Shown one piece after another: positions 8,473-61,651 of a stretch of 64,000 nt of DNA; within the stretch, counting starts at the first letter, position 1; every line of letters starts with the position of its first letter. The position numbers and the translations under genes are program-made. The notes below the pieces were generated by a model that worked only from the letters and a program-made list of their open reading frames with translations, did not search any database and had not been told where the DNA came from. Where the stretch lies: positions 2,812 to 66,811 of the forward strand of contig VMGE01000006.1 in the NCBI GenBank assembly GCA_007376395.1, in the 5' to 3' direction. Origin of the DNA: Microgenomates group bacterium Gr01-1014_5. GTDB taxonomy: Bacteria; Patescibacteriota; Microgenomatia; UBA8517; UBA10165.

Positions 8473-9297
8473 ATGGAAGATACTAAAGAAAAATCCTCAA
8501 GCGGGTTTAAATTAGAAAAGCTTCATGGTACACAAAAACATTTAGAGGCAATAACAACATATATTGATTCTCACCCTGAACAGTTTGCTTCGGTAAATTC
8601 TTTTACTTATACCACTGATCCTCAAGGAAATGCTGATATAACAATTACTACCCCCAAGGGAGACAAAAGGCTTTCAGAATTTTTGCCTAAAGAAGTATCA
8701 ATTGTTGATAGCCCAAACTCTGGAGCTGGAGCATATGCCCTCATAAGCTGGGACTTGGAAGGAAACCTTGCGAGCTCTTCTGTTAGCGTAGATTTAGCCT
8801 GGATGAAGGAAAAACCCGCCTTGGGAGCCTCTATTGTTGCCCATGAAATCGGACATGTTATAAACGAATCCGCCAAGGAGGATTTAGATCAAAGAAAAAT
8901 TACAGAAGCTCCCAAGACACCTGAAGAATTAGAAGAGTCTTTAATGTTGATTTGTAGGGTAGTTAACGACGGTCTTCAAGACGAGGTTGAAGCTTGGAAT
9001 TATGGTAAACCTATTGCAAATTTGTTTGGAGTTGATGAAACAACCTATGATGGTCAAATGGAGTATGCAATGAAAACATATATAAACACCTCTTACTATC
9101 AAATAAATGAAATGATGGCTAACATGCTTATGCATCTGACTCCTGATCAAAAACAAACATTAAAAGGTAAAGTATTCCCAGTCTATGATTTAGCAACACA
9201 GGAAAGAGTTGATTTGACCATTGATCAAATGTTAGAAAAATTTAAAACATTTAGTAAAGAGCGGTCTCAAACATCTGCAGGAGCAATGCCTTCTTAG
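8473..9297 (+). CDS. hypothetical protein with HExxH zinc-metallopeptidase motif
   Basis: 274 aa containing IVAHEIGHVIN. Confidence 0.45.
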   Translation: MEDTKEKSSSGFKLEKLHGTQKHLEAITTYIDSHPEQFASVNSFTYTTDPQGNADITITTPKGDKRLSEFLPKEVSIVDSPNSGAGAYALISWDLEGNLASSSVSVDLAWMKEKPALGASIVAHEIGHVINESAKEDLDQRKITEAPKTPEELEESLMLICRVVNDGLQDEVEAWNYGKPIANLFGVDETTYDGQMEYAMKTYINTSYYQINEMMANMLMHLTPDQKQTLKGKVFPVYDLATQERVDLTIDQMLEKFKTFSKERSQTSAGAMPS

Positions 9298-19438: not shown

Positions 19439-20000
19439 TAAGAGGCCATCTTCAACCACGTCCCTAGATTAGTTTCCCAACCACGCCACCTTAAGGTAAC
19501 AGTTCGGAATACAGGTTTTTGTAATTAGTAGTATACCATGATTCATCTGGGTACACAAATATAATCCGAAACCTTATGCTCAAGAGATATAAAAAGTTAT
19601 AGTTGACAAGTCTAATCTGAGAGATTATTATCAATTTCGATGTTAAATATTACTGTTAGTCGCGACGGGGATATCCATACGGTGAAAATAAACAAGTTTG
19701 TTACTTACGTAATAAACCGTTAATTAAGTTCTTTTTCCTCATATAGATCTTTCCCGAATTTAAACTGCTACTAACTTATTGTGGGTGTCTCTTATCAGCT
19801 GAAGGAGATTAAATCCAGTAATGGTAAGCGTCGGTAACGCGAGGTTGCGTAAAACATTATGGTATGTACCGAGAAACACAGACCATATAACAACCAGCCC
19901 ACAATTAACATCACTTAACGTCTTTCTACTGCAACTTCATGCTCGAATACTACTCCACTCTCGTCAATCGCTAGCCAAAATCCTTCAAAGGGCGAAGATT

Positions 20001-32695: not shown

Positions 32696-32790
32696 AATTG
32701 ACCTAATTAACCTAAGTACTCTAATTTCTAAATTGGGAATTGGAACTTATTTAGATTAATTAGAATAATTAGAGCAATTAGAAATTCTAT
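32694..32790 (+). repeat. ~95-nt dyad-symmetric intergenic repeat element, copy A (immediately upstream of tsaD)
   Basis: aaaattgacctaattaacctaa...ttagaataattagagcaattagaaattctat. Its reverse complement matches 60392..60489 over nearly its whole length. Confidence 0.7.
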
Positions 32791-33882
32791 ATGGTTATTC
32801 TTGGAATTGAAACTTCCTGTGACGAAACAGCGGCTTCAGTCGTAAAAGACGGAAGAGAAATTTTGTCTCATGTACTGGCAACTTCTGTACAGATGCACAT
32901 AAAAACTGGCGGCATTATTCCCGAAAAGGCTGCGCGTGAACAAGTGAAATCAATAATCCCAGTGATAGAAGAAGCACTTCTCCAGGCTTCAGGGGCTGGA
33001 GGCTGGAGGTTAGAGCCTGGGTCATCGTCTAATCTCCAATCTCTAATCTCTAGTCTCGACTGCATCGCCGTCACCTACGGTCCGGGGCTTATTGGCTCTC
33101 TTTTAGTGGGAGTAGAAACCGCCAAAACTCTTTCGTATCTTTGGAAAAAACCCGTTGTTCCCGTTAATCATCTCACTGCTCATATTTATGCAAACTGGCT
33201 AACCGGTAACCCGACAAACCGGAACCTGGAACCTGAATTGCCTGCTGTTGCACTGGTTGTCTCAGGAGGACATACAGATCTTGTTTACTTAAAAAATCAT
33301 GGTCAGATGGAATATATCGGAGGAACGCGCGACGACGCCGCTGGGGAAGCTTTTGACAAAACAGCCAGACTCTTAGGTCTTCCCTATCCCGGCGGACCAG
33401 CGATAGCCGCTGCTGCATCCCACTACCCACTACCCACTACCCACTACCAATCTTTCTTACCTCGGCCGATGATTTCCAATAATAATTTTGACTTTAGCTT
33501 CTCTGGCTTAAAAACAGCCGTGCTTCGCGAAGTATCTAACTTCCAACATCCATCTTCCAACCTCCCGCTTCCAACATCAGCTTTCGCATACGAAATTCAG
33601 GAAGCAATTACCGATGTTTTGGTCGAAAAATCTTTACGCGCGGTAAAGCAATATAAGGCAAAAACTTTTCTTTTAGCGGGCGGAGTCGCGGCAAACTCTC
33701 GCTTGCGCGAAAAGTTTGAATTAAGAATTAAGAATAATAAATTAGGGATAGATTTCAGGGTTCCTCCTCCAGAGCTTTGCACAGACAACGCCAGCCCTAT
33801 TGCCGCTTGTGCTGAATTTAACTATCACCCCCTCTCTTGGCAACAAATATCTGCCAATCCAAACTTGAGTATTATGAACTGA
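32791..33882 (+). CDS. tsaD: tRNA N6-adenosine threonylcarbamoyltransferase TsaD (Kae1/Gcp)
   Basis: MVILGIETSCDETAASVV..., HLxAH and GGVAAN motifs. It carries in-frame low-complexity inserts encoded by heptanucleotide tandem repeats. Confidence 0.9.
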   Translation: MVILGIETSCDETAASVVKDGREILSHVLATSVQMHIKTGGIIPEKAAREQVKSIIPVIEEALLQASGAGGWRLEPGSSSNLQSLISSLDCIAVTYGPGLIGSLLVGVETAKTLSYLWKKPVVPVNHLTAHIYANWLTGNPTNRNLEPELPAVALVVSGGHTDLVYLKNHGQMEYIGGTRDDAAGEAFDKTARLLGLPYPGGPAIAAAASHYPLPTTHYQSFLPRPMISNNNFDFSFSGLKTAVLREVSNFQHPSSNLPLPTSAFAYEIQEAITDVLVEKSLRAVKQYKAKTFLLAGGVAANSRLREKFELRIKNNKLGIDFRVPPPELCTDNASPIAACAEFNYHPLSWQQISANPNLSIMN

Positions 33883-35299: not shown

Positions 35300-36019
35300 A
35301 TGGATATTCTGCCTGCCCAGGAGTTTCCCGAAATTACAAGCCGCTTTAGTCGGAAAAAACTTCTTCTTGTCTTTTTCATTATTATCTTTCTCGTAATCGG
35401 TATTTTTATCGTTGCGCCATTTATTGCCGAACCGACTTCTCCGCCAAAAGAAATTTTTATTACCAATATTACCGACGGACAAGCGACAATAACTTGGTCT
35501 ACAGATAAACCGACAAAAGGAACGGTTAAGATTCAAAAGGATATTTATAAAGACGATGGAGATAAAAACAAAAAAAGCCAGGGGTTTTATGCCACACACC
35601 TTGTAACAATCGGCGCCTTGCGACCTGCCACTTCGTATAATTACGAGATTTATCAAGGCTGGAGAAAAGTTTCTGAGGGTTCGTTTACAACAGCAATTAT
35701 TTTAAACTCAATTAACAACCCCAACCCTGTCTATGGCCGCGTCATTGACTCATCAAACAGACCGCAAGTCGGAGCAATTGTCTATTTGACTGCAAAAAAT
35801 CAAAACGGAGAATCAGCGCTTTACTCGACTTTGACCAACAACGAGGGACGTTGGCAAATAGATCTAGCCAACTTTCGCACCCGTGATCTAAAAGCTCCGT
35901 TTAATTTAAACACTGAGACAGTTCAAGAAGTGGTTGTGCAAACAGGATTCCGCGGCAAGTTTAAAGCCGCGACAGATATGGATAACGATCAACCCTGGCC
36001 GGATATTATTGTAAATTGA
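35300..36019 (+). CDS. membrane-anchored FN3-like domain protein (paralog of 40278..41501)
   Basis: TM anchor, then ITNITDGQATITWSTDKPTKG (fibronectin-III/purple-acid-phosphatase N-terminal-like), YGRVIDSSNRPQVGAIVYL, NNEGRWQIDLANFR, MDNDQPWPDIIV. Confidence 0.5.
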   Translation: MDILPAQEFPEITSRFSRKKLLLVFFIIIFLVIGIFIVAPFIAEPTSPPKEIFITNITDGQATITWSTDKPTKGTVKIQKDIYKDDGDKNKKSQGFYATHLVTIGALRPATSYNYEIYQGWRKVSEGSFTTAIILNSINNPNPVYGRVIDSSNRPQVGAIVYLTAKNQNGESALYSTLTNNEGRWQIDLANFRTRDLKAPFNLNTETVQEVVVQTGFRGKFKAATDMDNDQPWPDIIVN

Positions 36020-36021
36020 TT

Positions 36022-39000
36022 ATGCAAAATTTTTCCAAAAACGTTTTTGTCCAACTTGTAAATTTGCTTCTAATTTTTAATGTTGTTTTTTCTTCTTTAG
36101 CGCCATCCTTAGTCTATGCGCAAAACACAGGAGAGTATGACGGAGGAGGAAATGCCGGAGATGACGGCGGAGGAGACAGTGGAGACGAAGGAGATTCTGG
36201 ATCAGATGAGGGTAACACAGGTGACGGAGGAGACGTAGACAACGGAGCGGCAGATGCCGAAACCGGCAACAGTGGAGTGGAGCAAGAAGGAAATCTCGGC
36301 AGCTCAGGGGACGAGGGCAACACCGGATCTGAAGGAAGCGGAGACGGAGGTAATACTGGTGGCGGTGGTGGTGGAGAAGGAGGAAATGCCGGAGATGAAA
36401 GTGGAAATGCAGACAGCGGCAGCTCAGGGGACAGCGGAGGCGGAGGTAATACCGGAGACAGTAGAACACCAACACCCACTCCTGTCTCAGGGGGAACAGG
36501 AAATACTGGCAGTTATGAGCCGAGGTCATACATTTCAGTAACCTACAGTTGCGGGGGGTGGGCAAACGGATGCTCAAATCGGGCCATGGATTGCCGGGTC
36601 TTCAACGGACAAATTGAATCTTGCGGAGGGTGTTACTGCATGGATGCCTCTGTTAACACCCCACCTTCTCCTTCATCTTCAGCACCTGAGGGAAATACCG
36701 GTGCAGAGCCGACACCTACACCAACTCCACCCACACCCGTGCCAACAATAAACGTTGAGGCAGAAGCACTTACCGCAACTGGCAATACCGGAACAGGGGG
36801 TAATATAGGTATAGAGCCTATCGTTCCGGTTACTTCGGATGAAACACAAAGAGCGGCAATTGCGGCGGCGCTTGCCGCAACACAGGCAACCACAATTGAC
36901 CTTATAAACCGGCAAGTCCGCGAAGCCGGTAGTGGAAACACCGGAATTGACCACACGCTTGCTTCAGTCCCAGATAATGTTGGCAATCTTGGCTCGCAAG
37001 TAGCTTCTGCAATCTTTGACCCTTTGGCAGATTTCCGATTACCAAATATTTTTAGTTCAAACTCAGATTTAACTGAAGCAGAAAGGCAAATTAACGAATT
37101 AGACGCAAGACTCGCTCAAGAGAGAGAAGAATTAAACCGCGACTTTTATAATCCCAATAACCCTTTATCTGCCCTCCGCTTGCTTGTTCCCAACGGAGAA
37201 AATAATAATGACCCCTCTGCTCTTTTTGGCCAATTTACGTCTCAAATGGGGAACGCCGGGGTTCGTGTAGAAGGCAATGTCGGAGAACCTTCTTTTAGTC
37301 TCGCGTGCCTGGACGCCGACTGTTTTCTAAGTAAGCTCGGCTCTACTCATCTCGCAACTCTACCGTTACTAGGAAACGTAACGACTGAGGGAGCAGTAGA
37401 TTTTTTTGCCAGCTCTGCACTGGAACTAAACCGGAAAAGCGCAGAAACCTCAAAAGTTCTTGGTGAAGCAAAAGACTTATATAACCAAGCAGGGGTAAGC
37501 GCGAGAATGCGAGCGTCCCAGCCAAATCCTTGCGACACAGATCCCAGCTCAACACAATGTTTAACTTTTTCAACTTTTTCACAAACTTCACCTAATTTAG
37601 CCTTAGAACTTCAAAGAGATAAAGAGCTATACCCCGACGACACCTTAACACCAGAAGAAGTCGCCGCAAGAAACGCTCTTGAAGCAAAGCTCGACGAAGC
37701 CGCTCAGATGGCTTATGACGGCGCAATAGAAACAGCCGCAATCGTAGCAATGACTTATTTTGGAGGTCCGGCTCTCAATAAAGTGGGTGGGTTCATAAAA
37801 GGCGTAGGTGGAAAACTTGTCGGATCTGCGAGTGATTTCCTACGACCAGCAGGAGGAATATTTGATGATTTAGTAACGGGAGGCCGAAGGGTTTTTGGCA
37901 CAGCAGACGATCTTCCAATGCCGGCACATGCCGTTATGCATTCCGTACAGTCAGTAGATGACTATTATGTACCGCCGTTTGCCAGATCTGTCGACCCCGA
38001 AGAAGCGCGAGAAGCGGGTATGAGAATATTTAACAGCGAGGCGCTTCACGACGACGATTTGTTAAGAGTTTCCCATTGGATCCGCAACGGTCAAGGATTG
38101 CCCGACAATGGCTTAAGCGACGATGTTGTCAATTTTGCAAAAAGAGTTTCTGACGATTTAATGTCTTCTTTCGTACCTGACAATAACGGCGGTTTTAGAC
38201 TATCACCAGTTTCAAAAATAACTGAAGCAAAAAGGGCGGTAATTAACGCTCTTGAGCACGAAGGAAATACTGGGCTAATTGTATATAGTCAACGGGCTAT
38301 TAGCGAAGATGAGTACCGCGAATTAGCCGAGCGCTCATTAGACGCAACCATAAGAAACAGACAAAATCAGGAAAAGTTGAGGGGGGCTGTGGAAGAAGCT
38401 AGAAAAATTGCGACCACGATGAACGACTCGCTTGGGGGTTCGGCAAGCGATATCGCCAGACGACAGACCGACATTGAATCTGCTTACGATTTAAGCAGGT
38501 TTCATTCAGCCTCACTTGAAAGCCGACTGGCAGGAAGTAGCGGCGAGGCAGTAGGTGGATTCTTTATTCCAAGAACCGGCCAAATATCTATAACTGAAGG
38601 AACAGGTCTATCTCCTTTGCCGACAATTGTTCACGAGTGTAGACACACTTGCGATTTTTTATCTAGCCCGCAACATTTTAATGATTTGACGCGTAGATTC
38701 GGGAAGCCAGCGGCAGTGGCACTTAACGAAGGAAGAGTTGCTAGTTTTGAAGTAGATGCATTAAAAATCAGTAAATATAATCAGAGCGCAAGTGACGCGA
38801 GTGCGGCACATACTCAAGCATTCCAACAATATAAACAAATATTTGAGGAAGGTATTGTACCAGAGCTGGCAAAAAGAGAAAACGTAACTATTGACGAGGC
38901 CCGTAAAATCACATACAGGGATCCTTCTGCTCTTGATAAAATAGACGATAAAAAAATCAATGAGATTTTAGACCAATTCGGAATCTCGAGAAATAGTCCT

Positions 39001-40272
39001 CCTGAAAAAGAAACGAATAAATTAATAAAGGTGGGAATTGCAACAGCCGGAACAATAACAGCGGTAATCTCTCTTGCGGCAGGGGCAGATCTTTACTTAA
39101 GCAAAACGGGTACTTCACAAGCCACTACCCCAACACCGGTTCCGACACAGAGGCCTGACTTATTAAATTTATTCAACTTTACTAAGAAGGCGTTCGCTCA
39201 AGAGGAATCTAGCAATTCTATATCCACACAACAGCCTTTTGACCTTGCTGTTAAAAAAGAGCTTGTAAAACACATAATAAACACCACTGGTAAAGTTGGC
39301 TTTGAAGATGTCGCTCAAGTTTTAGAGGCAGATACGCTGGAACCTAGGTTTAACAGAATAAGTGAAGGGTATAAATTTACCACTGGAAGCGCCGGCGTTT
39401 CTTGGGGATTGGTTGACAAAGACTTATACTCTGTTGTTCTTGAAGGAATACCCGGCATCGACATACAAACTCCTTTGATTGTTGATGCCAAAAACAATTC
39501 TACTGTTTTAATCCCAATCTCGATATCTAAAGGGAGCGGAAAGGTCGAATCTAAGCCGCAAGGATCAGAAACTTCCCTAATAAAAACAGCTTATGCGCAA
39601 GAAAACGATAATGCCCTTGCAAACGGCAAAACCAAAGTGCAGGTTTTGCTTTTTCAAGACGAAAATAGGAACGGGAAATTTGACACTAGCGATGCGGTTT
39701 TGCCTTGGGCAAATCTTATCGTTAAGCTTAAAGGTTTAAATAACAAGAAGGATATATTCTTAAATCAAGGTTGGAATCTGTTTACTTTAACAAACCTTCC
39801 TTCCAGTCCTCTTACTGCAAACGAATTGTTGCAAGAAATTGCTAAACAGAACGGTTATGCAACGACGGTTTCTACTTTGGAAAATGGGCTTTGGAAGTCA
39901 TATGTTGTCCGGGGAGATAAAACCTACTCAGGAGAAGACTTCCCTATCGTTCCGGGCAGGGCTTACTTTGTTAAAGCACTAAAACAGTCTGTCTTTACTT
40001 ACCAGGGCCAAGAGTTTGTTGCACCTGTTGATTTAACCCTCAATGAGGGATGGAACGCTGTCGGACTGCCAAAAACTTCTCAGGAATATAAAATTTCAGA
40101 CGTTTTGTCAAAACTGGACTCGTCAGGCGCTGACGCCGCAAGCCGCTGGGAATCAGGTCTTTGGGATAGTTTTGTAACTAAAAACAAAGAAGATTACGGA
40201 GAAAACTTCCCAATTGAAACAAACCGCGGCTACATTATCCGCGTTAGAAAAAATACTGCGTTTACGCCTTAA
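36022..40272 (+). CDS. giant surface protein (about 1416 aa) with an acidic Gly/Asp/Ser-rich N-terminal region, a recurring GNTG motif, an internal HExxH motif and two C-terminal ~90-aa repeats
   Basis: Signal-like N-terminus. Nine or more (E/G)GNTG motifs. IVHECRHTCD (HExxH). An internal TM segment (VGIATAGTITAVISLAAG). The C-terminal repeats are LNQGWNLFTL...FPIVPGRAYFVKA and LNEGWNAVGL...FPIETNRGYIIRV. The track starts at TTG 36016; ATG 36022 is more likely. Confidence 0.7.
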   Translation: MQNFSKNVFVQLVNLLLIFNVVFSSLAPSLVYAQNTGEYDGGGNAGDDGGGDSGDEGDSGSDEGNTGDGGDVDNGAADAETGNSGVEQEGNLGSSGDEGNTGSEGSGDGGNTGGGGGGEGGNAGDESGNADSGSSGDSGGGGNTGDSRTPTPTPVSGGTGNTGSYEPRSYISVTYSCGGWANGCSNRAMDCRVFNGQIESCGGCYCMDASVNTPPSPSSSAPEGNTGAEPTPTPTPPTPVPTINVEAEALTATGNTGTGGNIGIEPIVPVTSDETQRAAIAAALAATQATTIDLINRQVREAGSGNTGIDHTLASVPDNVGNLGSQVASAIFDPLADFRLPNIFSSNSDLTEAERQINELDARLAQEREELNRDFYNPNNPLSALRLLVPNGENNNDPSALFGQFTSQMGNAGVRVEGNVGEPSFSLACLDADCFLSKLGSTHLATLPLLGNVTTEGAVDFFASSALELNRKSAETSKVLGEAKDLYNQAGVSARMRASQPNPCDTDPSSTQCLTFSTFSQTSPNLALELQRDKELYPDDTLTPEEVAARNALEAKLDEAAQMAYDGAIETAAIVAMTYFGGPALNKVGGFIKGVGGKLVGSASDFLRPAGGIFDDLVTGGRRVFGTADDLPMPAHAVMHSVQSVDDYYVPPFARSVDPEEAREAGMRIFNSEALHDDDLLRVSHWIRNGQGLPDNGLSDDVVNFAKRVSDDLMSSFVPDNNGGFRLSPVSKITEAKRAVINALEHEGNTGLIVYSQRAISEDEYRELAERSLDATIRNRQNQEKLRGAVEEARKIATTMNDSLGGSASDIARRQTDIESAYDLSRFHSASLESRLAGSSGEAVGGFFIPRTGQISITEGTGLSPLPTIVHECRHTCDFLSSPQHFNDLTRRFGKPAAVALNEGRVASFEVDALKISKYNQSASDASAAHTQAFQQYKQIFEEGIVPELAKRENVTIDEARKITYRDPSALDKIDDKKINEILDQFGISRNSPPEKETNKLIKVGIATAGTITAVISLAAGADLYLSKTGTSQATTPTPVPTQRPDLLNLFNFTKKAFAQEESSNSISTQQPFDLAVKKELVKHIINTTGKVGFEDVAQVLEADTLEPRFNRISEGYKFTTGSAGVSWGLVDKDLYSVVLEGIPGIDIQTPLIVDAKNNSTVLIPISISKGSGKVESKPQGSETSLIKTAYAQENDNALANGKTKVQVLLFQDENRNGKFDTSDAVLPWANLIVKLKGLNNKKDIFLNQGWNLFTLTNLPSSPLTANELLQEIAKQNGYATTVSTLENGLWKSYVVRGDKTYSGEDFPIVPGRAYFVKALKQSVFTYQGQEFVAPVDLTLNEGWNAVGLPKTSQEYKISDVLSKLDSSGADAASRWESGLWDSFVTKNKEDYGENFPIETNRGYIIRVRKNTAFTP

Positions 40273-41550: not shown

Positions 41551-43689
41551 ATGGACAAAACATATAATCACAAACTACACGAAAAAGATATTTACACCTT
41601 TTGGGAAAAGGGTGGATATTTCCCCCCTTCGCCAAAGGCTACGGAGGGGCAAGGCAAGCCTTTTACTATTATTATGCCTCCTCCAAACGCCAACGACCCT
41701 TTACACATTGGACACGCCCGCTTTGTCGCTATAGAAGACACATTAATCCGCTACCACAGAATGAAAGGAGAGCCAACGCTCTGGCTCCCTGGAGCAGACC
41801 ATGCCGGAATCGAAACCCAATTTGTATTTGAGAAGCGCCTTAAAGAACAAGGCAAGAGCCGTTTTGATTTTGACCGCGACACACTTTTCAAAATGATTTG
41901 GGATTATGTGCAGGAAAACAAAGGTGTTATGGAAAATCAGCTCAGGATTTTAGGCGCCTCGTGCGACTGGACGCGCAATAAATTTACTCTCGACCCAGAG
42001 ATACAAAAAATTGTCTACAAAACTTTCAAGGCTCTTTCTGACGACGGACTCCTCTACCGTGGTGATCGCCTGGTTAATTACTGCACAGTCTGCGGCACGG
42101 GCTACTCCGAACTTGAGGTTGACAGAATAGAAAGAACCGACCCGCTTTATTACGTGCGTTACAAAAAAATAGACAGTGCGGATTATGTTGTTGTTGCCAC
42201 AACCCGTCCTGAGCCGATTTTTGCCGATACTCATTTGGCGGTTAATCCCAAAGATAAAAAGAACAAAGACTTGATAGGTACTAAAGTTCTAAACCCTTTA
42301 ACAAAACAGGAAATGGAAATTATAGGCGACGAGTTTGTTGATCCGGAATTTGGCACAGGTATTGTAAAACTGACGCCAGCCCACGACTTCAACGATTTTC
42401 AAGTTGCCGAGAAGCACAACTTGCCAATCATCCGCGCTATTAATCCTGACGGAAAAATTTCTCAGGCGGGAGGAAAATACGCCGGTCTTTACGTTAAAAA
42501 AGCGCGAGCGGCAATCGTTCACGATTTGCAAGAAAACGGTCTGATAGAAAAAATTGACGACAAATACCAACACGTGGTGGGAATTTGCTACCGCTGTAAA
42601 ACGAATATTGAGCCCATGACACGGGAGCAATGGTTTGTCAAAATCAGACCCTTAGCCGATAAAGCTCTACAGGCGGTCAAAAAAGGTGAGGTTAAATTCG
42701 CCGCTGAACGTTTTGAAAAAATTGCCATCCATTGGCTTAAGAATTTACGCGACTGGAATATCTCCCGCCAAATTGTTTGGGGAATGGCGATTCCTGCATG
42801 GCAGTGCAAAGAATGTAACAAGTGGATAATTACCGATAGCGAGGCGCCCATGGAATGCTCCTGCGGCTCACGAAATCTCGTCCAAGACCCCGACACCTTT
42901 GATACCTGGTTCTCCTCGGGTCAATGGCCATTCGCGACCTTACAGACCACAGAACCCGGTGACTTTGAATACTTTTACCCAACTTCTGTTATGAATACAG
43001 GATACGACATTGTCCCTTTCTGGGTTTTACGAATGATAATGTTGGGACTGTACACGACCGGCAACGTGCCATTTAAAAATGTACTAGTGCATGGACTGGT
43101 CCGCGACGCCCAAGGGCAAAAGATTTCCAAATCAAAAGGCAATGTTATTAACCCAATAGAAATGGCGGATAAATACGGCACAGATGCGTTAAGGATGGGT
43201 ATTCTGTGGGGCGCCTTAGTCGAAAGCGACATTGCACTATCCGAAAACAACATCCGCGGGCAAAGGAATTTTGGCAACAAGATTTGGAACATAGCGCGCT
43301 TCGTTCTTTCAACACCTCTAGTCTCTAACCTCCAGTCTCCAACCTCTAACGAAGATGATGAGCGGATTCTCAAAGAACTTAATGAAAGTATTAAAAAGAT
43401 AACAGATGCGCTTGACCAGTATCGTTTAAGCGAGGCGGCAGAAGAGTTGTATGAATTTGTTTGGAAAAAGTTTGCAGACGTTTATCTTGAAAAAACTAAA
43501 GACCGCCGGGGTGATGCACAACCTACCCTACTTTTTGTTTTACAAGAATCTTTAAAACTTGCTCATCCATTTATGCCTTTTATTACTGAGGCAATCTGGA
43601 AGATTGCCAATAAACAATACTCAGTAAACAGTCCTCAGGGATTTTTCAAAGAAGAAGCTTTGATTACAGCTCGCTGGCCAGCTAGTTGA
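41551..43689 (+). CDS. valS: valyl-tRNA synthetase (short form lacking the C-terminal coiled coil)
   Basis: HIGH motif PLHIGHARF, KMSKS motif KISKSKGN, and an editing domain. It carries an in-frame heptamer-repeat insert at 43311..43350. Confidence 0.9.
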   Translation: MDKTYNHKLHEKDIYTFWEKGGYFPPSPKATEGQGKPFTIIMPPPNANDPLHIGHARFVAIEDTLIRYHRMKGEPTLWLPGADHAGIETQFVFEKRLKEQGKSRFDFDRDTLFKMIWDYVQENKGVMENQLRILGASCDWTRNKFTLDPEIQKIVYKTFKALSDDGLLYRGDRLVNYCTVCGTGYSELEVDRIERTDPLYYVRYKKIDSADYVVVATTRPEPIFADTHLAVNPKDKKNKDLIGTKVLNPLTKQEMEIIGDEFVDPEFGTGIVKLTPAHDFNDFQVAEKHNLPIIRAINPDGKISQAGGKYAGLYVKKARAAIVHDLQENGLIEKIDDKYQHVVGICYRCKTNIEPMTREQWFVKIRPLADKALQAVKKGEVKFAAERFEKIAIHWLKNLRDWNISRQIVWGMAIPAWQCKECNKWIITDSEAPMECSCGSRNLVQDPDTFDTWFSSGQWPFATLQTTEPGDFEYFYPTSVMNTGYDIVPFWVLRMIMLGLYTTGNVPFKNVLVHGLVRDAQGQKISKSKGNVINPIEMADKYGTDALRMGILWGALVESDIALSENNIRGQRNFGNKIWNIARFVLSTPLVSNLQSPTSNEDDERILKELNESIKKITDALDQYRLSEAAEELYEFVWKKFADVYLEKTKDRRGDAQPTLLFVLQESLKLAHPFMPFITEAIWKIANKQYSVNSPQGFFKEEALITARWPAS

Positions 43690-43696
43690 TAGTGTA

Positions 43697-44011
43697 ATGA
43701 ATATAGGTAACACTGTCTCAAAAAATGGAGTTAAAATCCGCCTCACAGAAGAACGGTGGAAACATATTGTTCTTATGCATCCAGGTCTTATTGGCAGACA
43801 AAAGCAAGTTTTAACAACAATAAAAAATCCAGACTATGTTTTCAGGGGTGGAGCTGAAGAGATATTAGCAGTTACAAAAGTTTCTCTAAGAAGATATCTT
43901 GTGGTAATATACAAAGAGACAGAAGCTGACGGATTTATTATCACAGCCTATGAAACAACCGATACTCGTTGGCTGTTTAAGAAAGAATTAATATGGAACA
44001 AGCATTTGTAA
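43697..44011 (+). CDS. DUF4258-like small protein (putative toxin of a two-gene module)
   Basis: 104 aa with ...VVIYKETEADGFIITAYE, typical of DUF4258-type toxins. Confidence 0.35.
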   Translation: MNIGNTVSKNGVKIRLTEERWKHIVLMHPGLIGRQKQVLTTIKNPDYVFRGGAEEILAVTKVSLRRYLVVIYKETEADGFIITAYETTDTRWLFKKELIWNKHL

Positions 44012-44414: not shown

Positions 44415-45158
44415 TTACTCTTTCTTTCCGTCAGTAGGTGTGTTCTCTCCTGTGACAGCTTTTTCTGTACCTTCTGTGGCTGGAGTTTCACCCTCTGCAG
44501 CTGGAGCACCACCTTCTGCTGCGGCGACTTCACCCTCTGCCGGTGCGGCAACTACCGGTTCTTCAACTTTCGCCGGTTCTTCGATTACAACCACAATTTG
44601 CTCTGGATCACCTTTTATTTCAACTTTTGTCTTATCGACTTTTAGGTCTGCGACTTTTATTGCTTGACCAACTTCGGTTAACTCCGAAACATCAACGGTA
44701 ATATTTTCCGGAAGATCGGTTGGTAATGCTTCTACCTCTACTTCGCGCAACTGAGGAACCAAAATTCCTTCTTGGGATTTTTCGATTGGCGACTCGCCTG
44801 TAAATTCAATTTGGACTGTGGCGGTAACTTTTTCGAGCAGGTCGACCTCTAGAAAATCTGCGTGAACCGGAAGATCTGTTACTGAATTTAACTGGACGTT
44901 ATGGATTAAAACTGGATGTTCTGTACTGCCCACTTTTAAAGAAACTAATCCAGTCTCGCCAACTTCTTTAAAAGTCTTTAAAAATTCGATTAGGTTGACC
45001 TGAACCGACTGAGATTTAACTTTTTTACCGTAAATATTTCCAGGCAAAACACCAGTGCGGCGTAATTGTTTTACTTTACGTCCTACAACTGTTCTTGGTT
45101 CTGCTTGTAATGTGTGTTGATCCCGATCAGATCGGGATTGACTCACTTGGGCTGCCAT
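44415..45158 (-). CDS. rplY: 50S ribosomal protein L25 / general stress protein Ctc with acidic Ala/Glu-rich C-terminal tail
   Basis: RKVKQLRRTGVLPGNIYGKK, then a beta-barrel and an extended C-terminus. Confidence 0.75.
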   Translation of the reverse strand: MAAQVSQSRSDRDQHTLQAEPRTVVGRKVKQLRRTGVLPGNIYGKKVKSQSVQVNLIEFLKTFKEVGETGLVSLKVGSTEHPVLIHNVQLNSVTDLPVHADFLEVDLLEKVTATVQIEFTGESPIEKSQEGILVPQLREVEVEALPTDLPENITVDVSELTEVGQAIKVADLKVDKTKVEIKGDPEQIVVVIEEPAKVEEPVVAAPAEGEVAAAEGGAPAAEGETPATEGTEKAVTGENTPTDGKKE

Positions 45159-48007: not shown

Positions 48008-48421
48008 TCACCCGGTAAATTCACCGTCGAGAATTTGATTAACTAAAGTGTCTGCCTCACGGTTTTGGGCGCGGGGAACATTTCTGTAAACTATTTTTTG
48101 TCCAATATCTTTTTCCAGCTTCTTTGCCGTTTGTGCAAGTTTTTGTAAAGTTAAGTTCTTAATTTTATAAATACCGTTTAACTGGTTAACGATTAGTTGC
48201 GAGTCGAGGACAAAAACAAGTGACTGGTCTGTGGGATTATCTGTAACCCACAACAGTGCTTCAATAACGGCTGAGTATTCGGCAACGTTGTTGGTGGCGA
48301 CTCCTAAAAGTTTCCCCGATTTATAAATCACTTTTCCGCCGACGGTGACTACAAAAGCTGCTGCGGCGCGTCCTGGGTTACCGCGGCTGGCGCCGTCACA
48401 ATGAATAATTATTCCGCCCAT
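48008..48421 (-). CDS. rnhA: ribonuclease HI
   Basis: CDGASRGNPG, NNVAEYSAVIEAL, DSQLIVNQ and READTLVNQ carry the catalytic DEDD residues. Confidence 0.85.
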   Translation of the reverse strand: MGGIIIHCDGASRGNPGRAAAAFVVTVGGKVIYKSGKLLGVATNNVAEYSAVIEALLWVTDNPTDQSLVFVLDSQLIVNQLNGIYKIKNLTLQKLAQTAKKLEKDIGQKIVYRNVPRAQNREADTLVNQILDGEFTG

Positions 48422-51201: not shown

Positions 51202-51405
51202 TTATCTACAATTCAATATTCTAACTAATCCCAAACTTAATCCTTTAGTTATTCCGTTTTTTTTGACTGCCTCATATGTATATTGCGAACAAGTAGGGAA
51301 GTGGCGGCACACTGGGCGGCCAAAGACCAGAAACCTGCCCAACCCGGTGTCAAACGATAAATACTTTTGATATAGCCTAATTAAAAATAATACAATTTTT
51401 GACAT
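51202..51405 (-). CDS. yidD: membrane protein insertion efficiency factor YidD
   Basis: ...FGRPVCRHFPTCSQYTYEAVKKNG... Confidence 0.8.
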   Translation of the reverse strand: MSKIVLFLIRLYQKYLSFDTGLGRFLVFGRPVCRHFPTCSQYTYEAVKKNGITKGLSLGLVRILNCR

Positions 51406-51412
51406 ACAAAAA

Positions 51413-51745
51413 TTAAGACACTTTCGTTAAAACTTCCCGGGCGTCTTTGTTTAAAACCCCGTGTGTTTGCAGATTTGCCTGAGGTTTGGCCAAAAACACC
51501 CCAAGTATACCACTTGGGAGATTTTCCAACATTTCTTGGGCTGCGGCACGTGCGGCCCGCCTTATCTTATTTCTCTCTACAGCTTTTTTTGAAATTTTGT
51601 TTGAAACAATCATACCCACCCTTTTTTCCGGCTTTTCTGTGATTATGTAAGAGAACGCATAATATTTTGTGTGTTGAATTTTACCCTGCTTTAACACAGT
51701 TTGAAAATCAGCTTTAAGAGTTAAACGGTTTTTTTTAGGAAGCAT
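51413..51745 (-). CDS. rnpA: ribonuclease P protein component
   Basis: 110 aa with ...NKIRRAARAA... in a conserved position after rpmH. Confidence 0.8.
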   Translation of the reverse strand: MLPKKNRLTLKADFQTVLKQGKIQHTKYYAFSYIITEKPEKRVGMIVSNKISKKAVERNKIRRAARAAAQEMLENLPSGILGVFLAKPQANLQTHGVLNKDAREVLTKVS

Positions 51746-51746
51746 T

Positions 51747-51884
51747 TCAAGAGGAGAGTTTTTTTCGGCCGACCTTGCGCCTGCTTTTTAAAACCCGGCG
51801 GCCGTTCTTTGTTTTCGAGCGCGCGCGATATCCAAGAGCTCTCTTGCGGGATATCTTTTTTCCTTTAAAGGTTCTCTTTGGCAT
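51747..51884 (-). CDS. rpmH: 50S ribosomal protein L34
   Basis: The reverse complement translates [45 protein letters not shown]. It is below the ORF-track size cutoff. Confidence 0.85.
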
Positions 51885-52087
51885 ATCTCTCCAATTTTAC
51901 ATCTTTAAACAAAACTAATGCAACCTTAAACACGCCTTTCGTATATTTTCGGGGTTGACGCCATTGTGGATAACTTATATATTAGTGTATAGTTTTTAGT
52001 TGTTAGCGGATAGGCTCCTACCCCATACTTCCTGTCTAATTTTATAGTCTCCTACAACCTAAACGCTATTAGCTAAAACCTAAAAAC
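51885..52087. other. rpmH-dnaA divergent intergenic region, candidate oriC part 1 (perfect DnaA box TGTGGATAA at 51965..51973)
   Basis: AT-rich region with one consensus DnaA box between the divergent rpmH and dnaA genes. Confidence 0.45.
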
Positions 52088-53476
52088 ATGGACACTCAAA
52101 AACTTTGGAAAGATGTACTTGAAACAATTAAAGTTTCTGTTTCGGGAGCTAACTATTCTACTTGGTTGTCCCAAACTTTTATTATTTCAGTCAAACCAGT
52201 AGGAGAAACAGGTCTACCTGCCGATAGGCAGGTCGTCGAAATCGGCTGTCCAAACGCTTTTATTGCCGACGGGTTGGAAAAAAGGTATTTTACGCTTATC
52301 CAAGACTCTCTAAACCAGGTTACGGGTATAAAAAACGAGGTAGTCTTCAGTGTTCAACAAATCCAAAATGAAACAAAAAAAACAATTGAGTCTCCTTTGT
52401 TTTCCCAAAATTTACAAAGTGAAGAAAAATCTTTAGAAGACGATTTAAAAAAAGCACGAATCCGCCCAGGGTTTACTTTCGAAAACTTTGCCGTCTCCTC
52501 GTCAAACCAAATGGCCCACGCCGCGGCCGATGCTGTTTCTAAAAACATCGGGAACGCCTACAACCCTTTGTTTTTTTGGGGAGGAGTGGGTATAGGAAAA
52601 ACCCATTTAATGCTGGCAATAGGCAACTATTTTTTGCGCCACAATCCTGACGGAAAGGCACTTTACGTTATGGGTGAAGAATTTACAACAGAGATTGTAG
52701 AAGCCATTAGAAATAAAAATACACAAGAGTTCAAAAAAAGATACCGCAGTTTAAAGCTTTTAATGCTTGACGATGTACAATTTATCGCTGGAAAAGAAAA
52801 GGTGCAAGAAGAATTTTTTCACACCTTCAACACTATTCTGCGCGAAGGGGGACAGGTGGTATTAACTTCTGACCGGCCTCCAACAGAAATTCAAAAATTA
52901 GAAGACCGCTTAAGAAACAGGTTTGAAGCAGGGATGATTGTCGACATTTCTCCTCCTGATTTTGAGTTAAGAACGGCGATTTCTTTAATTAAAGCCCAAC
53001 AAAAGGGGATGATGTTAGACATGGATGTGGCCCAAGCCATCGCCGCCAACATAGACAACCCGCGCAAAATCGAGGGTTTTTTGACAAGACTACTTGCCGA
53101 AACCAATAGTTTTAAAGAAAAGATTACGATAGAGCTTGTTAATAAAATCTTAGGGAAAACAAACGGCGTCTTAATTACTCCCCAAAGAAAAGCAACACTG
53201 CCGCAAGAGCTCATCGACGCTGTTTGTGATTATTTTTCTTTAGGAAAAAGAAAACTCCTTAGCGATACACGCACGCGTCCCGTTGCCCACCCGCGGCAAA
53301 TCCTTATGTATCTCTTACGTGTTGAACTTGGCCTGCCTTTACAAGAAGTTGGTAGGCTTGTTGGAGGACGCGACCACACCACCGTTATGCACGCTGTGGG
53401 CAAGATATCTACAAACTTATCCACAAACGGCGGGTTGAGGGATGATATTTTGGGGATAAAAAAATACATTTCTTGA
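52088..53476 (+). CDS. dnaA: chromosomal replication initiator DnaA
   Basis: AAA+ Walker A GGVGIGKTHL, box VII, and a C-terminal DNA-binding domain. Confidence 0.95.
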   Translation: MDTQKLWKDVLETIKVSVSGANYSTWLSQTFIISVKPVGETGLPADRQVVEIGCPNAFIADGLEKRYFTLIQDSLNQVTGIKNEVVFSVQQIQNETKKTIESPLFSQNLQSEEKSLEDDLKKARIRPGFTFENFAVSSSNQMAHAAADAVSKNIGNAYNPLFFWGGVGIGKTHLMLAIGNYFLRHNPDGKALYVMGEEFTTEIVEAIRNKNTQEFKKRYRSLKLLMLDDVQFIAGKEKVQEEFFHTFNTILREGGQVVLTSDRPPTEIQKLEDRLRNRFEAGMIVDISPPDFELRTAISLIKAQQKGMMLDMDVAQAIAANIDNPRKIEGFLTRLLAETNSFKEKITIELVNKILGKTNGVLITPQRKATLPQELIDAVCDYFSLGKRKLLSDTRTRPVAHPRQILMYLLRVELGLPLQEVGRLVGGRDHTTVMHAVGKISTNLSTNGGLRDDILGIKKYIS

Positions 53477-53481
53477 TAAAT

Positions 53482-53604
53482 TATGGATAACTTTAAGAGT
53501 TATGAACAGGGAGTTCAAATGGTTAACATTTTTATACAGAAATTGTGCTTCTTGCTTTCAACAATAAAAAAGGCGAAAATCAAAGCTGTTGTCCACTTGT
53601 CCAC
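53482..53604. promoter_or_regulatory. DnaA-box cluster in the dnaA-dnaN intergenic region (candidate oriC part 2)
   Basis: TATGGATAA (53482-53490), TTGTCCAC (53588-53595) and TTGTCCACA (53596-53604), each one mismatch from TTATCCACA, in a 255-nt AT-rich spacer. Confidence 0.5.
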
Positions 53605-53731
53605 ACAACACTACTACAACTACTAGTTAATAATACAGTGAATAGGAAGTAACAAACAGCAAGTAGAAAATCGAATATCTATAATATATTGACCGTAAAC
53701 CCTATAAACTGTACGCTATGCGCTAAGAGCT

Positions 53732-54835
53732 ATGAAAGTAAAAGTTTTACAAGAAGATTTACTAAAAGGTTTAAGTTGTGTCTCGCGTTTTGTTTCAGTA
53801 CGGGCACAGCTTCCTGTTTTGTCAAACATTCTTCTAAAAGCCGAGAAAGGGAAACTTAAACTAGGAGCTACAAATTTAGAAACGGGAATTGTTTTTGAGG
53901 TAGGCGCAAAAGTAGAAGAAGACGGACTACTTACCGTACCTGCAAAAGTTTTACTCGAACTAACGGCTAATTTACCCCCAGGACAAATCACTCTATCCTC
54001 AGAACAAGAGCAGTTAAAAGTGTCTTCTGGTTCGTTCCAAGCCCAACTATCCGGAATTTTAGCTTCTGAATTTCCTTCCATTCCAGACAAACTAGACCAC
54101 ACAGATTTCACCATCTCTGGAGATGTATTGCAGTTAATTAATAAACAAGTGGTCTTTGCCGCGGCCCAAGATGACTCTAGGCCTATTTTAACCGGAGTTC
54201 TGTTTAAATTTTCTGAAGATAATTTAAGAGCTGTAGCCACAGACGGATTTAGGCTTTCATCCAAAGAGCTCGTTTTTAAAAAAATAGCCGCAGACAAAAA
54301 AACCTTACTTGTACCAGCCAAACTTTTAGACGAGCTCTACAAAATAGTAGGAGGACAGGAGATAAAAGTCGCACTCATGGAGCGCGAAAAACAAATAATG
54401 TCAGAAGCCGAGTCTTTGGTGCTTACGGGGAGGCTTTTGGAAGGGGACTACCCGGATTTTGAAAGAATTATCCCCAAAAACACTCCTCATAAAGCAAGCG
54501 TCGACAGGGAGGCTTTTGTCCGTGCTATACGCGCAGCGGCTGTTTTTGCCCGTGAGGCCTCCGGTATTATTAAATTGGTCATGGAAAAAGACAAGATTAT
54601 AGTTGTCGCCGAAAGTCCTCAATACGGTCGTGAAGAGTCGGAAGTAGAGGCGAGGGTTGAAGAGGGAGGAATTACAATAGCTTTTAACTACCGCTATATA
54701 CTTGATTTTTTAAATTCAGTCACCGGTCAGGAAATATCAATAGAAACCGAAGGGCCAACAGCACCTGGTGTTTTTCGCGACACAAAAGACCCGTCTTATC
54801 TTCATTTGATTATGCCGTTCAAGATTCAAAACTAA
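53732..54835 (+). CDS. dnaN: DNA polymerase III beta sliding clamp
   Basis: 367 aa, MKVKVLQEDLLKGL... with a three-domain beta-clamp layout. Confidence 0.9.
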   Translation: MKVKVLQEDLLKGLSCVSRFVSVRAQLPVLSNILLKAEKGKLKLGATNLETGIVFEVGAKVEEDGLLTVPAKVLLELTANLPPGQITLSSEQEQLKVSSGSFQAQLSGILASEFPSIPDKLDHTDFTISGDVLQLINKQVVFAAAQDDSRPILTGVLFKFSEDNLRAVATDGFRLSSKELVFKKIAADKKTLLVPAKLLDELYKIVGGQEIKVALMEREKQIMSEAESLVLTGRLLEGDYPDFERIIPKNTPHKASVDREAFVRAIRAAAVFAREASGIIKLVMEKDKIIVVAESPQYGREESEVEARVEEGGITIAFNYRYILDFLNSVTGQEISIETEGPTAPGVFRDTKDPSYLHLIMPFKIQN

Positions 54836-55431
54836 TAACCGTCGGGAGAAAAATCAATTGTTAAGTCTTTCCCCCAAACTGCTAAAAATTGCTCCATAGT
54901 TTGAGGGGAGAAATACCAGGACTCGTAAATTAAACCAGAATCTTCATGAGCAACAACGACAACTCCGCGCCCTGCCCAAACATAAGTTTTAAAACCAACG
55001 CTTTTATGCTCTCCCCAAAACTCTCTCTCTGAAGGTCCGTATTTTTGCCGGAACGAGGCGATGTTTCCATTTCCTAAAATACGGTCTTTAATAAGAACAG
55101 TACTTGTTCCTGAGAATAAAACCTCATGCTCTGGTCCGTCGCTTTGGCTAGGGTAGAGAAACTTAAGATAATCTCCTTCAGGCACTACTGTTTTAGGCTC
55201 TCCTAGTTTTTGCCTGACCTGTTCTGTCGTTGTTGTTCCGGGAGTTATTTCGTTCCAGGAGGGTGTAGGAGGCGGCGTGGGGGTTTGAACCATTTCTTGC
55301 GGTTTAGAAAGAAAGATTTTTGCCAAGACGACAATCGTAGCCATAAAAGCCAAAAGAATCAGGAGCCAATTTCTTTTTAAAAAACTGGGCTTTTTTTGTT
55401 CGGTACTTTGGTTTTGAAAAGTGTTTTCCAT
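54832..55431 (-). CDS. membrane-anchored hypothetical protein
   Basis: N-terminal TM and a Pro/Thr linker. It overlaps the dnaN stop by 4 nt (convergent). Confidence 0.4.
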   Translation of the reverse strand: MENTFQNQSTEQKKPSFLKRNWLLILLAFMATIVVLAKIFLSKPQEMVQTPTPPPTPSWNEITPGTTTTEQVRQKLGEPKTVVPEGDYLKFLYPSQSDGPEHEVLFSGTSTVLIKDRILGNGNIASFRQKYGPSEREFWGEHKSVGFKTYVWAGRGVVVVAHEDSGLIYESWYFSPQTMEQFLAVWGKDLTIDFSPDGY

Positions 55432-56120
55432 TAATCTTGTTGTCCAAAAATATTATTACGGGCAAATTGATAATGTAAAGGCCACTTGTTTGGCATTTCG
55501 AAAATGTTAGTTGCGCCTAAAAACTTAAATTCGCGTCTGATAATGTAAAGACCTATTGTTTCGGCAAAATCCTCGTCGATAATGTTAATATTGTTTAGAT
55601 ATTTACTTGGGTAAGTAGGAAGGATACCTTCTTTAATTGTAGCTCCTGAGTTTGCAAAACCAGAAAAAGCAACAGCTCCGTCTACTTTTGCATATACGTG
55701 AGCAGACTCGTGAGAAAGCGTGTAAGACAGCTGGTGAATGCCCGCAAATGCTTTGTCGAACAAATAAATATCCTTTCCGATGACGTGCCCGCTTTCTCCT
55801 TCCTTAGCGACAGTGCCTCTAAACACCCTAATTGCCCCTTGGTTGCAAAGAGTTGCTGTGTATGTTTTGTATTGAGCTATTCTAGCGGCCGCGGCTGCTA
55901 CCTCGGCTTTATCTTCAGGCGTCCACCCCTTACCTCCTTCCGCAAAAGTGAAGCACCCTATCGGAGGGTTTCCGATAATTACCGTAGCTGTTTTCGAAGT
56001 AGACTCTCCTGAAGGGCCGTCTTCGACGTCAGCCGTAACCGTAACTTTGTGGCAATGTGTGATTTCCCGTGCTGGGTTCTGGGGGGTTGTTTTTGCCATA
56101 CACAGAGAATTTTTCAGCAA
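55431..56120 (-). CDS. hypothetical protein with HExxH motif (putative metallopeptidase-like)
   Basis: Contains LSHESAHVYAK. An alternative start MAKTTPQ lies at 56099. Confidence 0.4.
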   Translation of the reverse strand: MLKNSLCMAKTTPQNPAREITHCHKVTVTADVEDGPSGESTSKTATVIIGNPPIGCFTFAEGGKGWTPEDKAEVAAAAARIAQYKTYTATLCNQGAIRVFRGTVAKEGESGHVIGKDIYLFDKAFAGIHQLSYTLSHESAHVYAKVDGAVAFSGFANSGATIKEGILPTYPSKYLNNINIIDEDFAETIGLYIIRREFKFLGATNIFEMPNKWPLHYQFARNNIFGQQD

Positions 56121-60391: not shown

Positions 60392-60489
60392 TTCAAATTT
60401 CTAATTATTCTAATTGCTCTAATTTCTAAATAAATCCCAATTGTCCAATTTTTGGGTCAATTAGAAATTAGGTTAATTAGGTCAATTTT
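60392..60489 (-). repeat. ~95-nt dyad-symmetric intergenic repeat element, copy B (immediately upstream of the virB4 N-terminal fragment)
   Basis: Relative to the downstream gene it has the same orientation as copy A: aaaattgacctaattaacctaa...attagagcaattagaataattagaaat. Confidence 0.7.
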
Positions 60490-61589: not shown

Positions 61590-61651
61590 ATATCGCTACG
61601 CGATAATTCATAAAGCAAAAAACATAAAAGTTATGCTCTTTGCAATATGTT

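Follow-up and report, generated by a model that had tools for sequence, protein, structure and literature searches.

In Microgenomates group bacterium Gr01-1014_5, which belongs to the Candidate Phyla Radiation (CPR), two core genes carry in-frame tandem repeats of seven nucleotides that are real and well beyond chance expectation. These genes, tsaD and valS, lie in a 64 kb stretch of DNA that was analysed as a whole (hereafter, the window), in which small genes of the protein family PF05635 are bracketed by inverted arrays of similarly short tandem units; the same arrangement recurs in other phyla, and several of the coding tracts are related in sequence to the arms of these PF05635 cassettes. 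PF05635 is the family of 23S rRNA intervening-sequence proteins, for which the names S23p and four-helix-bundle protein are also in use, and it includes Avd, known from diversity-generating retroelements. With confidence that we would place at about even, we read the tracts in tsaD and valS as translated, in-frame copies of a genome-wide family of tandem-heptamer inverted-repeat elements, similar to the intervening sequences (IVSs) of rRNA and the short tandemly repeated repetitive (STRR) sequences of cyanobacteria. An initial annotation of the window had recognised the tracts and suggested that they could act as contingency-like switches; that part was not supported, because variation among close relatives took the form of tract replacement at constant length, without change in copy number.

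Heptanucleotide tracts in tsaD and valS

The tsaD gene of the window (32791–33882, + strand; Pfam PF00814, 1.3e-79) encodes a protein of 363 aa that is 100% identical to TSC88742.1, and valS (41551–43689, + strand; Pfam tRNA-synt_1, 1.6e-118) encodes one of 712 aa that matches the valyl-tRNA synthetase structure 1GAX (4e-169). Tracts of period 7 or 14 were called across the window with Tandem Repeats Finder (TRF), giving six in tsaD and two in valS, all on the + strand. At site 1 of tsaD, a G-rich 5′ arm (site 1a, 32994–33020, GGCTGGA ×3.9, encoding GAGGWRLEPG) is followed by a 3′ arm (site 1b, 33028–33057, TCTAATC ×4.3, encoding SNLQSLISSL). The latter is the tract that the initial annotation had described as the successive heptamers TCTAATC, TCCAATC, TCTAATC and TCTAGTC, which are present at 33028–33055, one base from the 33027–33054 first given. 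Further along the gene lie AACCTGG ×2.9 (site 2, 33217–33235), CCCACTA ×4.3 (site 3, 33419–33448, encoding SHYPLPTTHYQ), an AACTTCC-type array of CTTCCAA/CATCCAT units with periods of both 7 and 14 (site 4, 33538–33583), and GAATTAA ×2.6 (site 5, 33718–33735), which occupies a segment of constant length and is not an insert. Sites 3 and 4 had been seen at the outset as CACTACC ×4 (33421–33448) and a TTCCAAC-based array (33541–33580). In valS, tract 1 was called at 43314–43346 with a period of 14, its heptamers running on to 43350; the series TCTAGTC, TCTAACC, TCCAGTC, TCCAACC and TCTAAC occupies 43317–43350 (again one base from the original start, 43316) and encodes LVSNLQSPTSN. Tract 2 of valS (43611–43638) comprises two copies of TAAACAATACTCAG, also with a period of 14. 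The tracts described initially are in frame and encode the peptides assigned to them, and the search for further 7-mer arrays added three tracts in tsaD (sites 1a, 2 and 5) and tract 2 in valS. Only CCCACTA ×4.3 is perfect (100% matches), with the other tracts at 64–92% matches.

The excess of short-period arrays was evident under each null model. Period-7 arrays called by TRF in the window numbered 12, where 1.15 would be expected from 40 dinucleotide shuffles, and period-14 arrays numbered 3, with 0.35 expected from dinucleotide shuffles; a scan with tighter limits (3 or more copies, 85% or more matches) returned 6 arrays against 0.07 expected, 4 of them in tsaD. Tract density was ~6 per kb in tsaD compared with 0.14 per kb in the remainder of the window. 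When the TsaD protein was held fixed and synonymous codons were redrawn from window codon usage, the 7 period-7/14 arrays observed compared with 0.16 expected (maximum 2 in 200 trials); the excess that remains identifies the periodicity as a feature of the DNA rather than a by-product of the peptides. Lag-7 matching under synonymous resampling was significant in each tract of tsaD and valS, with p ≤ 0.003 for seven of the eight (p = 0.0008 at tsaD site 2).

Sequence relationships between the tracts bear out the earlier suggestion of a heptamer family common to the two genes. The degenerate motif (TCYARYC)×3 had 7 hits in the window against 0.01 expected, confined to tsaD site 1 (both arms, and therefore both strands) and valS, and from this confinement it follows that both genes share one repeat family, of which site 1a is the reverse complement, including that of valS tract 1. 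A kinship with a ~95-nt intergenic palindromic element, likewise noted before, was borne out both by local alignment and by copies of TCTAAT: the hexamer is not enriched in the window (37 copies, 38 expected), and 10 of the 37 fall in the two ~95-nt elements and tsaD site 1. Two heptamer families occur at at least two loci each within the 64 kb, which is the scope of this count, as distinct from copy number across the genome.

Sites 1a and 1b are complementary to one another and can form an uninterrupted 17-bp stem, 32999–33015 with 33041–33057, that includes three G-U pairs. The predicted hairpin reached −33.3 kcal/mol on the sense strand (z = −3.2), against z = −1.3 for the antisense strand. 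A pair of complementary arrays, of different sequence, likewise makes up the site-1 insert in a further seven Microgenomates lineages; such pairs were also found at site 4 in the relative P0114, as a full hairpin, and at site 2 in P0013. The site-4 insert is longer in P0114 and in P0032, and the P0032 peptide retains the pattern of a G-rich arm followed by a C-rich arm. The strand preference of folding is not universal, with the antisense strand folding equally well or better in several relatives, and the single arms at tsaD sites 3 and 4 and in valS are unstructured as RNA; sense-strand RNA structure as a general rule was rejected on these grounds. Searches against Rfam returned no known RNA family at the tsaD and valS tracts.

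PF05635 genes bracketed by inverted tandem arrays

Three PF05635 cassettes, all on the − strand, are present in the window. Cassette 2 (3196–3630; ORF 3224–3598; Pfam 4.5e-19) is a 124-aa gene with 27-nt arms that are 81% complementary (3196–3222 and 3597–3630, GTAGTGR and YCACTAC units) and that, folded as RNA, close a terminal stem around the whole open reading frame (ORF; z = −3.7). Cassette 1 (455–894; ORF 507–860; Pfam 2e-28), with arms at 455–505 and 861–894 built of GATACA/ACAGAT units, and cassette 3 (61609–62065; ORF 61652–62032; Pfam 5e-22), with arms of the TTTCTGT type, likewise carry inverted arms of 6–7-nt tandem units. When the 58 genes of the window were ranked by flank-to-flank complementarity, cassettes 2, 1 and 3 took the first, second and third places, respectively. 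The ~95-nt palindromic element, which is made of CTAATT-type units, is found directly upstream of tsaD (32696–32790; z −2.3), with a second copy at 60392–60490. The window contains no rRNA detectable by Rfam, and all copies of these elements lie within or between protein-coding genes. AT-rich period-7 arrays were also observed in the spacer between a gene ending at 2386 and the TIM gene (AATTTAC, 2382–2413; AAAATTG, 2451–2488), and an array similar to the AAAATTG one occupies positions 70–98 of the related locus L114.

The region directly upstream of tsaD varies in cassette content between near-identical strains. Locus L002 has a fourth PF05635 cassette there, again arranged as arm, ORF and arm, with arms of (TAAATTC)n; L085, which is 96–98% identical to L002, lacks the entire 463-nt cassette and has a 14-nt spacer from the upstream stop codon to the start of tsaD. 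At the same spot, the window and L001 carry the ORF-less ~95-nt palindromic element, which we propose to be a hairpin form of the cassette without an ORF.

A survey of PF05635 flanks covering 14 non-redundant genes and 1.6 Mb (CPR, Margulisbacteria, Zixibacteria and plasmids of Nostoc, Calothrix, Aulosira and Picosynechococcus) extended the association beyond the window. With one uniform detector, strict lag-7 arrays occurred at 5.7 per kb in the 70-nt flanks of PF05635 genes and at 0.047 per kb elsewhere, a ~120-fold difference, and 10 of the 14 genes had at least one such array in their flanks. Upstream (GTAGTGR/GTTGTGR)n arrays have been kept by the cassette 2 homologues of Woesebacteria, Margulisbacteria and other lineages, and the Woesebacteria homologue has kept (YCACTAC)n downstream too, while a PF05635 gene of Zixibacteria is flanked by (GGGGCTT)n and (AGTCCCY)n. 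On the cyanobacterial plasmids (Nostoc punctiforme, Calothrix, Aulosira and Picosynechococcus), all four PF05635 genes examined lie between tandem arrays that read as complements of each other. The units are of 8 nt in Picosynechococcus and of 7 nt in the other three, and the two flanks are strongly complementary in every case but that of Calothrix, where the complementarity is weak. The gene of Picosynechococcus sp. PCC 7003 (plasmid NZ_CP016476.1, 126149–127287), whose inverted 8-nt arrays are AGGAGATA and ATCTCCTA, is located between cas10 and cmr3 in a type III-B CRISPR operon.

Coding tracts were compared with cassette arms by local alignment, using 300 random window segments as the null. 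Site 3 of tsaD matched the arms of cassette 2 (scores 15 and 21, p < 0.004), and the second copy of the CCCACTA family, at 3597–3630, is itself an arm of that cassette. Site 1b matched the arms of the L002 cassette (scores 13 and 15, p ≤ 0.003) and, less strongly, the ~95-nt elements (p 0.02–0.03). Tracts from L114 valS and L001 tsaD-2 matched arms of cassettes 1 and 3 (p ≤ 0.013).

Loop positions, variation among relatives and neighbouring features

In an alignment of 25 Microgenomates TsaD sequences with that of E. coli, sites 1, 2 and 4 varied greatly in length, and among TsaD homologues the loops at these three sites ranged from 0 to ~40 extra residues. Relative to solved TsaD structures, the window protein is ~15–18 residues longer at site 1, ~3–7 longer at each of sites 2–4 and ~2 longer at site 5. 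Some TsaD relatives have an insert at site 1 and others, including many close ones, have none, while site 3 is of nearly fixed length (20–21 residues) in ~64% of 120 homologues and site 5 in 83%. An AlphaFold (AF2) model showed coil at sites 1, 2 and 4 and, for the most part, at site 3, with a predicted local distance difference test score (pLDDT) below 50 at residues 74–79, and site 1 is predicted to be disordered. The initial view of the tracts as inserts in loops therefore holds in part: the tsaD tracts occupy loops that vary by lineage and exceed in length those of solved structures, whereas the alignment of valS tract 1 is gap-free against the linker that joins the catalytic domain of T. 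thermophilus ValRS (1GAX) to its anticodon-binding domain, so that this tract is a rewritten linker and no insertion. Loop-length steps of 7 residues, equivalent to three units, were looked for in the 120 TsaD homologues and not seen. The idea that the tracts serve as ANN-codon-rich sensors of N6-threonylcarbamoyladenosine (t6A) status was rejected by inspection, as the window units CCCACTA and TCTAATC are not ANN-rich.

Similar tracts are widespread in related genes. Each of the seven related tsaD genes for which DNA was obtained carries 2–9 tracts of period 7 or 14, mostly in the same loops and with lineage-specific units, at a density of 1.7–8 per kb compared with 0–0.6 per kb in the flanks (contigs > 9 kb). 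Among 80 tsaD loci from GTDB species in the matches listed, tracts were found in CPR lineages (Wildermuthbacteria, Saccharibacteria, Magasanikbacteria, Moranbacteria and one more) and almost none in tsaD from outside the CPR. Other CPR genes near tsaD also bear tracts, namely valS (in four lineages), recG, nadE, nadC, tsaE and a lytic transglycosylase gene. At site 5, period 7 occurs with differing units in 9 of 11 lineages and is significant against synonymous resampling in 7 of the 11. Nearly all Microgenomates lineages have their synonymous positions in register at site 3, which implies recent homogenisation or exchange at the DNA level; in Wildermuthbacteria and Saccharibacteria, the conserved peptide alone can explain the signal. 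A separate kind of insert was observed in the Daviesbacteria tsaD of locus L005 (10001–11296, 432 aa), where long palindromic inserts in the loops are not heptamer arrays, and loops 2 and 4 have a GTCATTGCGA / TCGCAATGAC motif in common, which suggests from sequence that a different family of small palindromic elements occupies the same loops.

The GTDB loci among the matches listed are mostly distant from the window tsaD, and strain-level comparisons rest on few sequences because the genome scan gave mostly distant loci and the metagenome scan three close relatives. Copy-number variation among strains, proposed at the outset as a check on switching, was not found in these comparisons; tract sequence varied instead, at constant length. 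Eight strain variants of the P0003 90% cluster (96–100% identity) had identical tract lengths and no change in unit number, there were no indels between tsaD of L002 and L085 (98.3% nucleotide identity), and the alignment of P0007 and P0253 tsaD had no gaps. The CCCACTA ×4.3 tract is equally long in three species, and in the closest relative, L001, it is replaced at site 3 by GCAAAAA ×4.9 of equal length. At site 5 (equivalent to window 33700–33760), members of the P0003 cluster (P0003, P0241–P0249) carry either KRLTDKFKLAIGHLALDIDF or SRLREKFELKIKNCKLKIDF, which are unrelated and of the same length, in strains that are 96–100% identical elsewhere. The valS genes of L114 and the window are 92% identical in protein and ~90% in DNA, and among patches that fall below 50% identity the two heptamer tracts alone bear repeats, the one further patch of low identity lying at the stop codon; tract 1 of L114 is CAGGACA ×4.4, of equal length to that of the window, and tract 2 is AGAACAA ×4. 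In-register matches between the window and L114 valS tracts (a YAG core and a T,T,C,C pattern) were too few relative to chance to support their common descent. Between close relatives, then, what occurs is patch replacement, with tract sequence exchanged at constant length, and not switching by slippage. The mosaic pattern along tsaD, as seen in these alignments, points to patches of recombination or gene conversion, and together with the constant length it is evidence against a slippage-driven switch.

Other features of the window were recorded alongside the tracts. The rplY gene for L25 (44415–45158, − strand) has a 21-nt in-frame insertion in its N-terminal coding region (45111–45131) with a perfect palindromic core, ATCCCGATCAGATCGGGAT, and TTGA on both sides, and this insertion is absent from the close relative L114. 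A 1418-aa low-complexity, secreted-looking protein (36016–40272) has no collinear counterpart in the otherwise collinear L114, and a 104-aa ORF following valS (43697–44011) has no match there. Rfam identified a complete group I intron (80 bits) at 8176–8390 on the + strand, between ORFs 7444–8118 and 8473–9297, together with a DUF3800-IX RNA match (43.9 bits; 19450–19517, − strand) and a cobalamin riboswitch match just above the gathering score (32.6 bits; 63050–63242, − strand). The rnpA gene lies at 51413–51745 (− strand) and cumulative GC skew has its minimum at ~52–56 kb, so ~51400–56000 may be the replication origin region.

Origin of the tracts and competing explanations

Under the reading that we favour, the full form of the element would be a cassette in which two complementary arrays of 6–8-nt units form a stem enclosing a small PF05635 gene. 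From this cassette form would derive both the hairpins that lack an ORF (tsaD site 1 and the ~95-nt element upstream of that gene, for example) and solo arms, among them the valS tract and tsaD sites 3 and 4. Within genes, the survivors would be those copies that keep the frame and fall in permissive surface loops or linkers, where they would be translated as low-complexity peptide segments, and their later evolution would have proceeded mainly by replacement of whole patches without change in length, with recombination or gene conversion acting across lineages or among tracts. We infer the direction of this descent, from cassettes to coding tracts as opposed to the reverse or to a shared slippage process, as well as the mode by which the elements move and the status of the tracts as selectively near-neutral passengers.

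Parallels to known systems extend to several kinds of repeat. In the 23S rRNA IVS of Coxiella burnetii, the S23p ORF is immediately preceded by 3–4 tandem GACAGAT units whose number varies among strains, and the IVS is closed by terminal inverted repeats and cut by RNase III; ORF-less hairpin forms of IVS exist in other bacteria (PMC4990558). The terminal inverted-repeat stem enclosing a PF05635 ORF that characterises rRNA IVSs (Leptospira, C. burnetii and Brucella) is shared by the three cassettes of the window and that of L002, and a terminal stem of 17 bp is also found, without the ORF, at tsaD site 1. Unlike rRNA IVSs, the cassettes here lie between protein genes, and the ORF-less forms sit inside coding genes and are translated; if RNase III cut such an element out and the ends were not rejoined, an mRNA would not be rescued. 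The cyanobacterial STRR sequences and the GGGAATC repeats of Xanthomonas are dispersed tandem heptamers with few families per genome, often in convergent inverted pairs, which vary in sequence and length between close relatives, and which are mainly intergenic and under-represented in ORFs (PMC4692102). Period 7 is enriched in the window, and on the four cyanobacterial plasmids the arrays flank PF05635 genes as inverted arms; the eight window tracts differ in lying in frame within core genes, and in a CPR bacterium. Rickettsia palindromic elements (RPEs) are also known to insert in frame into protein-coding genes. As generally described, they resemble the tracts in being small in-frame palindromic repeats in conserved genes, translated as an extra surface segment with function intact, and differ in being ~100–150 bp long, not built of tandem heptamers and found in a different taxon; to our knowledge they have no link to PF05635. 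Presence or absence at orthologous sites, as expected of RPEs or miniature inverted-repeat transposable elements, was seen for the L002/L085 cassette, the TsaD site-1 insert and the rplY palindrome that is absent from L114. The literature that we searched contained nothing on heptanucleotide repeats in CPR bacteria or in frame in core genes, and the association of PF05635 with heptamer repeats was not found in it beyond the Coxiella report.

The contingency or phase-variation switch, in which slipped-strand mispairing would change the number of heptamers and toggle the frame of tsaD or valS, is highly improbable. Its appeal is that 7 is not a multiple of 3, such that single-unit slips shift the frame, that one tract (CCCACTA ×4.3) is perfect, and that heptanucleotide tracts elsewhere do vary: the heptamers of the Coxiella IVS differ between 2 and 3 copies among strains (PMC4990558), and the promoter of the surface adhesin gene hmw1A of H. 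influenzae carries a phase-variable tract of 13–24 perfect 7-bp units, differing between isolates (PMC8262952). The tracts described here share with hmw1A the 7-nt tandem unit, and slippage is possible in principle; however, none exceeds 4.3 perfect units and most are imperfect, they lie mid-gene, and a difference in copy number was absent from every close-relative comparison. Both tsaD and valS are single-copy core genes, neither dispensable nor environment-facing, in which a one-unit slip causes a frameshift and an OFF state would be harmful, and the same loops carry tracts in long-diverged lineages. A serious rival, although on balance an unlikely one, is that the tracts are microsatellites that arose in situ through slippage favouring 7-nt units and local homogenisation, with their likeness to PF05635 arms either coincidental or due to shared mutational bias. 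Heptameric repeats are over-represented among simple repeats in many bacteria, for which a link to the footprint of the polymerase active site has been proposed (PMC4692102, which cites earlier work), and origin in situ would suit the differences in units between sites and lineages, the tracts that match no cassette arm and the synonymous positions in register within each lineage, which indicate recent DNA-level homogenisation. Yet the same unit families recur in different genes and cassette arms within one genome, arm families are conserved with PF05635 genes across phyla, and arrays are enriched ~120-fold in PF05635 flanks; moreover, the tracts are often complementary, hairpin-forming pairs, which slippage alone does not make, and the unit-number polymorphism that slippage predicts was not seen.

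Selection on the products of these genes offers two further explanations. The tsaD site-1 hairpin could be a selected RNA element that regulates the mRNA through RNase III cleavage, stability or ribosome pausing, with its heptamer-built stem tolerating register shifts. The G-U pairs that make the 17-bp stem stronger on the sense strand would agree with this, as would the retention of hairpin potential in eight lineages despite sequence change, and RNase III acts on IVS stems that are built in the same way (PMC4990558). We nonetheless judge it improbable, given that antisense strands fold as well or better in several relatives, that structure is lacking at tsaD sites 3 and 4 and in the valS tract, and that many close relatives have no site-1 insert, while an origin by inverted duplication would also predict conservation of the hairpin. 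Adaptation at the protein level, with the repeats being only the mutational origin of loops selected as surface features of TsaD and ValS (for example, CPR-specific contacts with partners or tRNA), draws on the nearly fixed lengths of sites 3 and 5 (~64% and 83% of 120 homologues) and on their shared peptide pattern across CPR classes. It too seems quite improbable as a general explanation, as near-identical strains and species differ by the exchange of whole tracts for unrelated peptides, disorder is predicted for site 1, and the loops at sites 1, 2 and 4 hold anywhere from 0 to ~40 extra residues.

Several observations weigh against descent of the tracts from PF05635 cassettes. Sites 2, 4 and 5 of tsaD had no significant match to the cassette arms compared. 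No clear target-site duplication was found at the L002/L085 cassette junction, and no transposase was found at that junction or among the selected window ORFs scanned, in which an RVT_3/RNase H match at 48008–48421 belongs to an RNase H-type protein. Cassette 2 is syntenic (cupredoxin-IVP-TIM) across Microgenomates and has therefore been stably inherited there, and is not recently mobile. Descent may also have run differently, as the arms themselves could stem from the slippage that, on a hypothesis cited in PMC4692102, makes heptamer repeats common in many bacteria. Partial conservation of the peptides at sites 3 and 5 extends across CPR classes, as in [FY]K.QN[ST]K[FY]KI, and for this reason some tracts may be ancient and maintained by selection on the protein instead of being passengers. 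Descent from cassettes leaves the very strong bias towards tsaD unexplained, and the window is the only part of the Gr01-1014_5 genome that was examined.

More tentatively, and with less confidence than we attach to the origin of the window tracts, PF05635 cassettes could represent one widespread class of selfish hairpin, with stems of tandem heptamers around a small Avd-like gene, uniting the IVSs of rRNA, the cyanobacterial STRR sequences together with other heptameric families, and the in-frame low-complexity inserts in housekeeping proteins of the CPR. The ORF-less copies of this hairpin would invade protein-coding genes, be translated and continuously rewrite the surface loops of core enzymes such as TsaD and ValRS. 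If the link between the cassettes and the tracts is true, it would provide an origin for heptanucleotide repeat families (STRR, GGGAATC and others), give context to the very common and seemingly functionless genes annotated as ‘four helix bundle’ or S23p, and extend the concept of the intervening sequence from rRNA to protein-coding genes. The interpretation of the tracts as contingency switches should not be propagated. As hot spots of patchwise replacement, the tracts can mislead alignments, phylogenies and strain typing. For the CPR, the same link, if true, would account for part of the lineage-specific length variation and low-complexity segments of their otherwise conserved proteins, and would flag such segments as repeat-derived, rather than as functional motifs.

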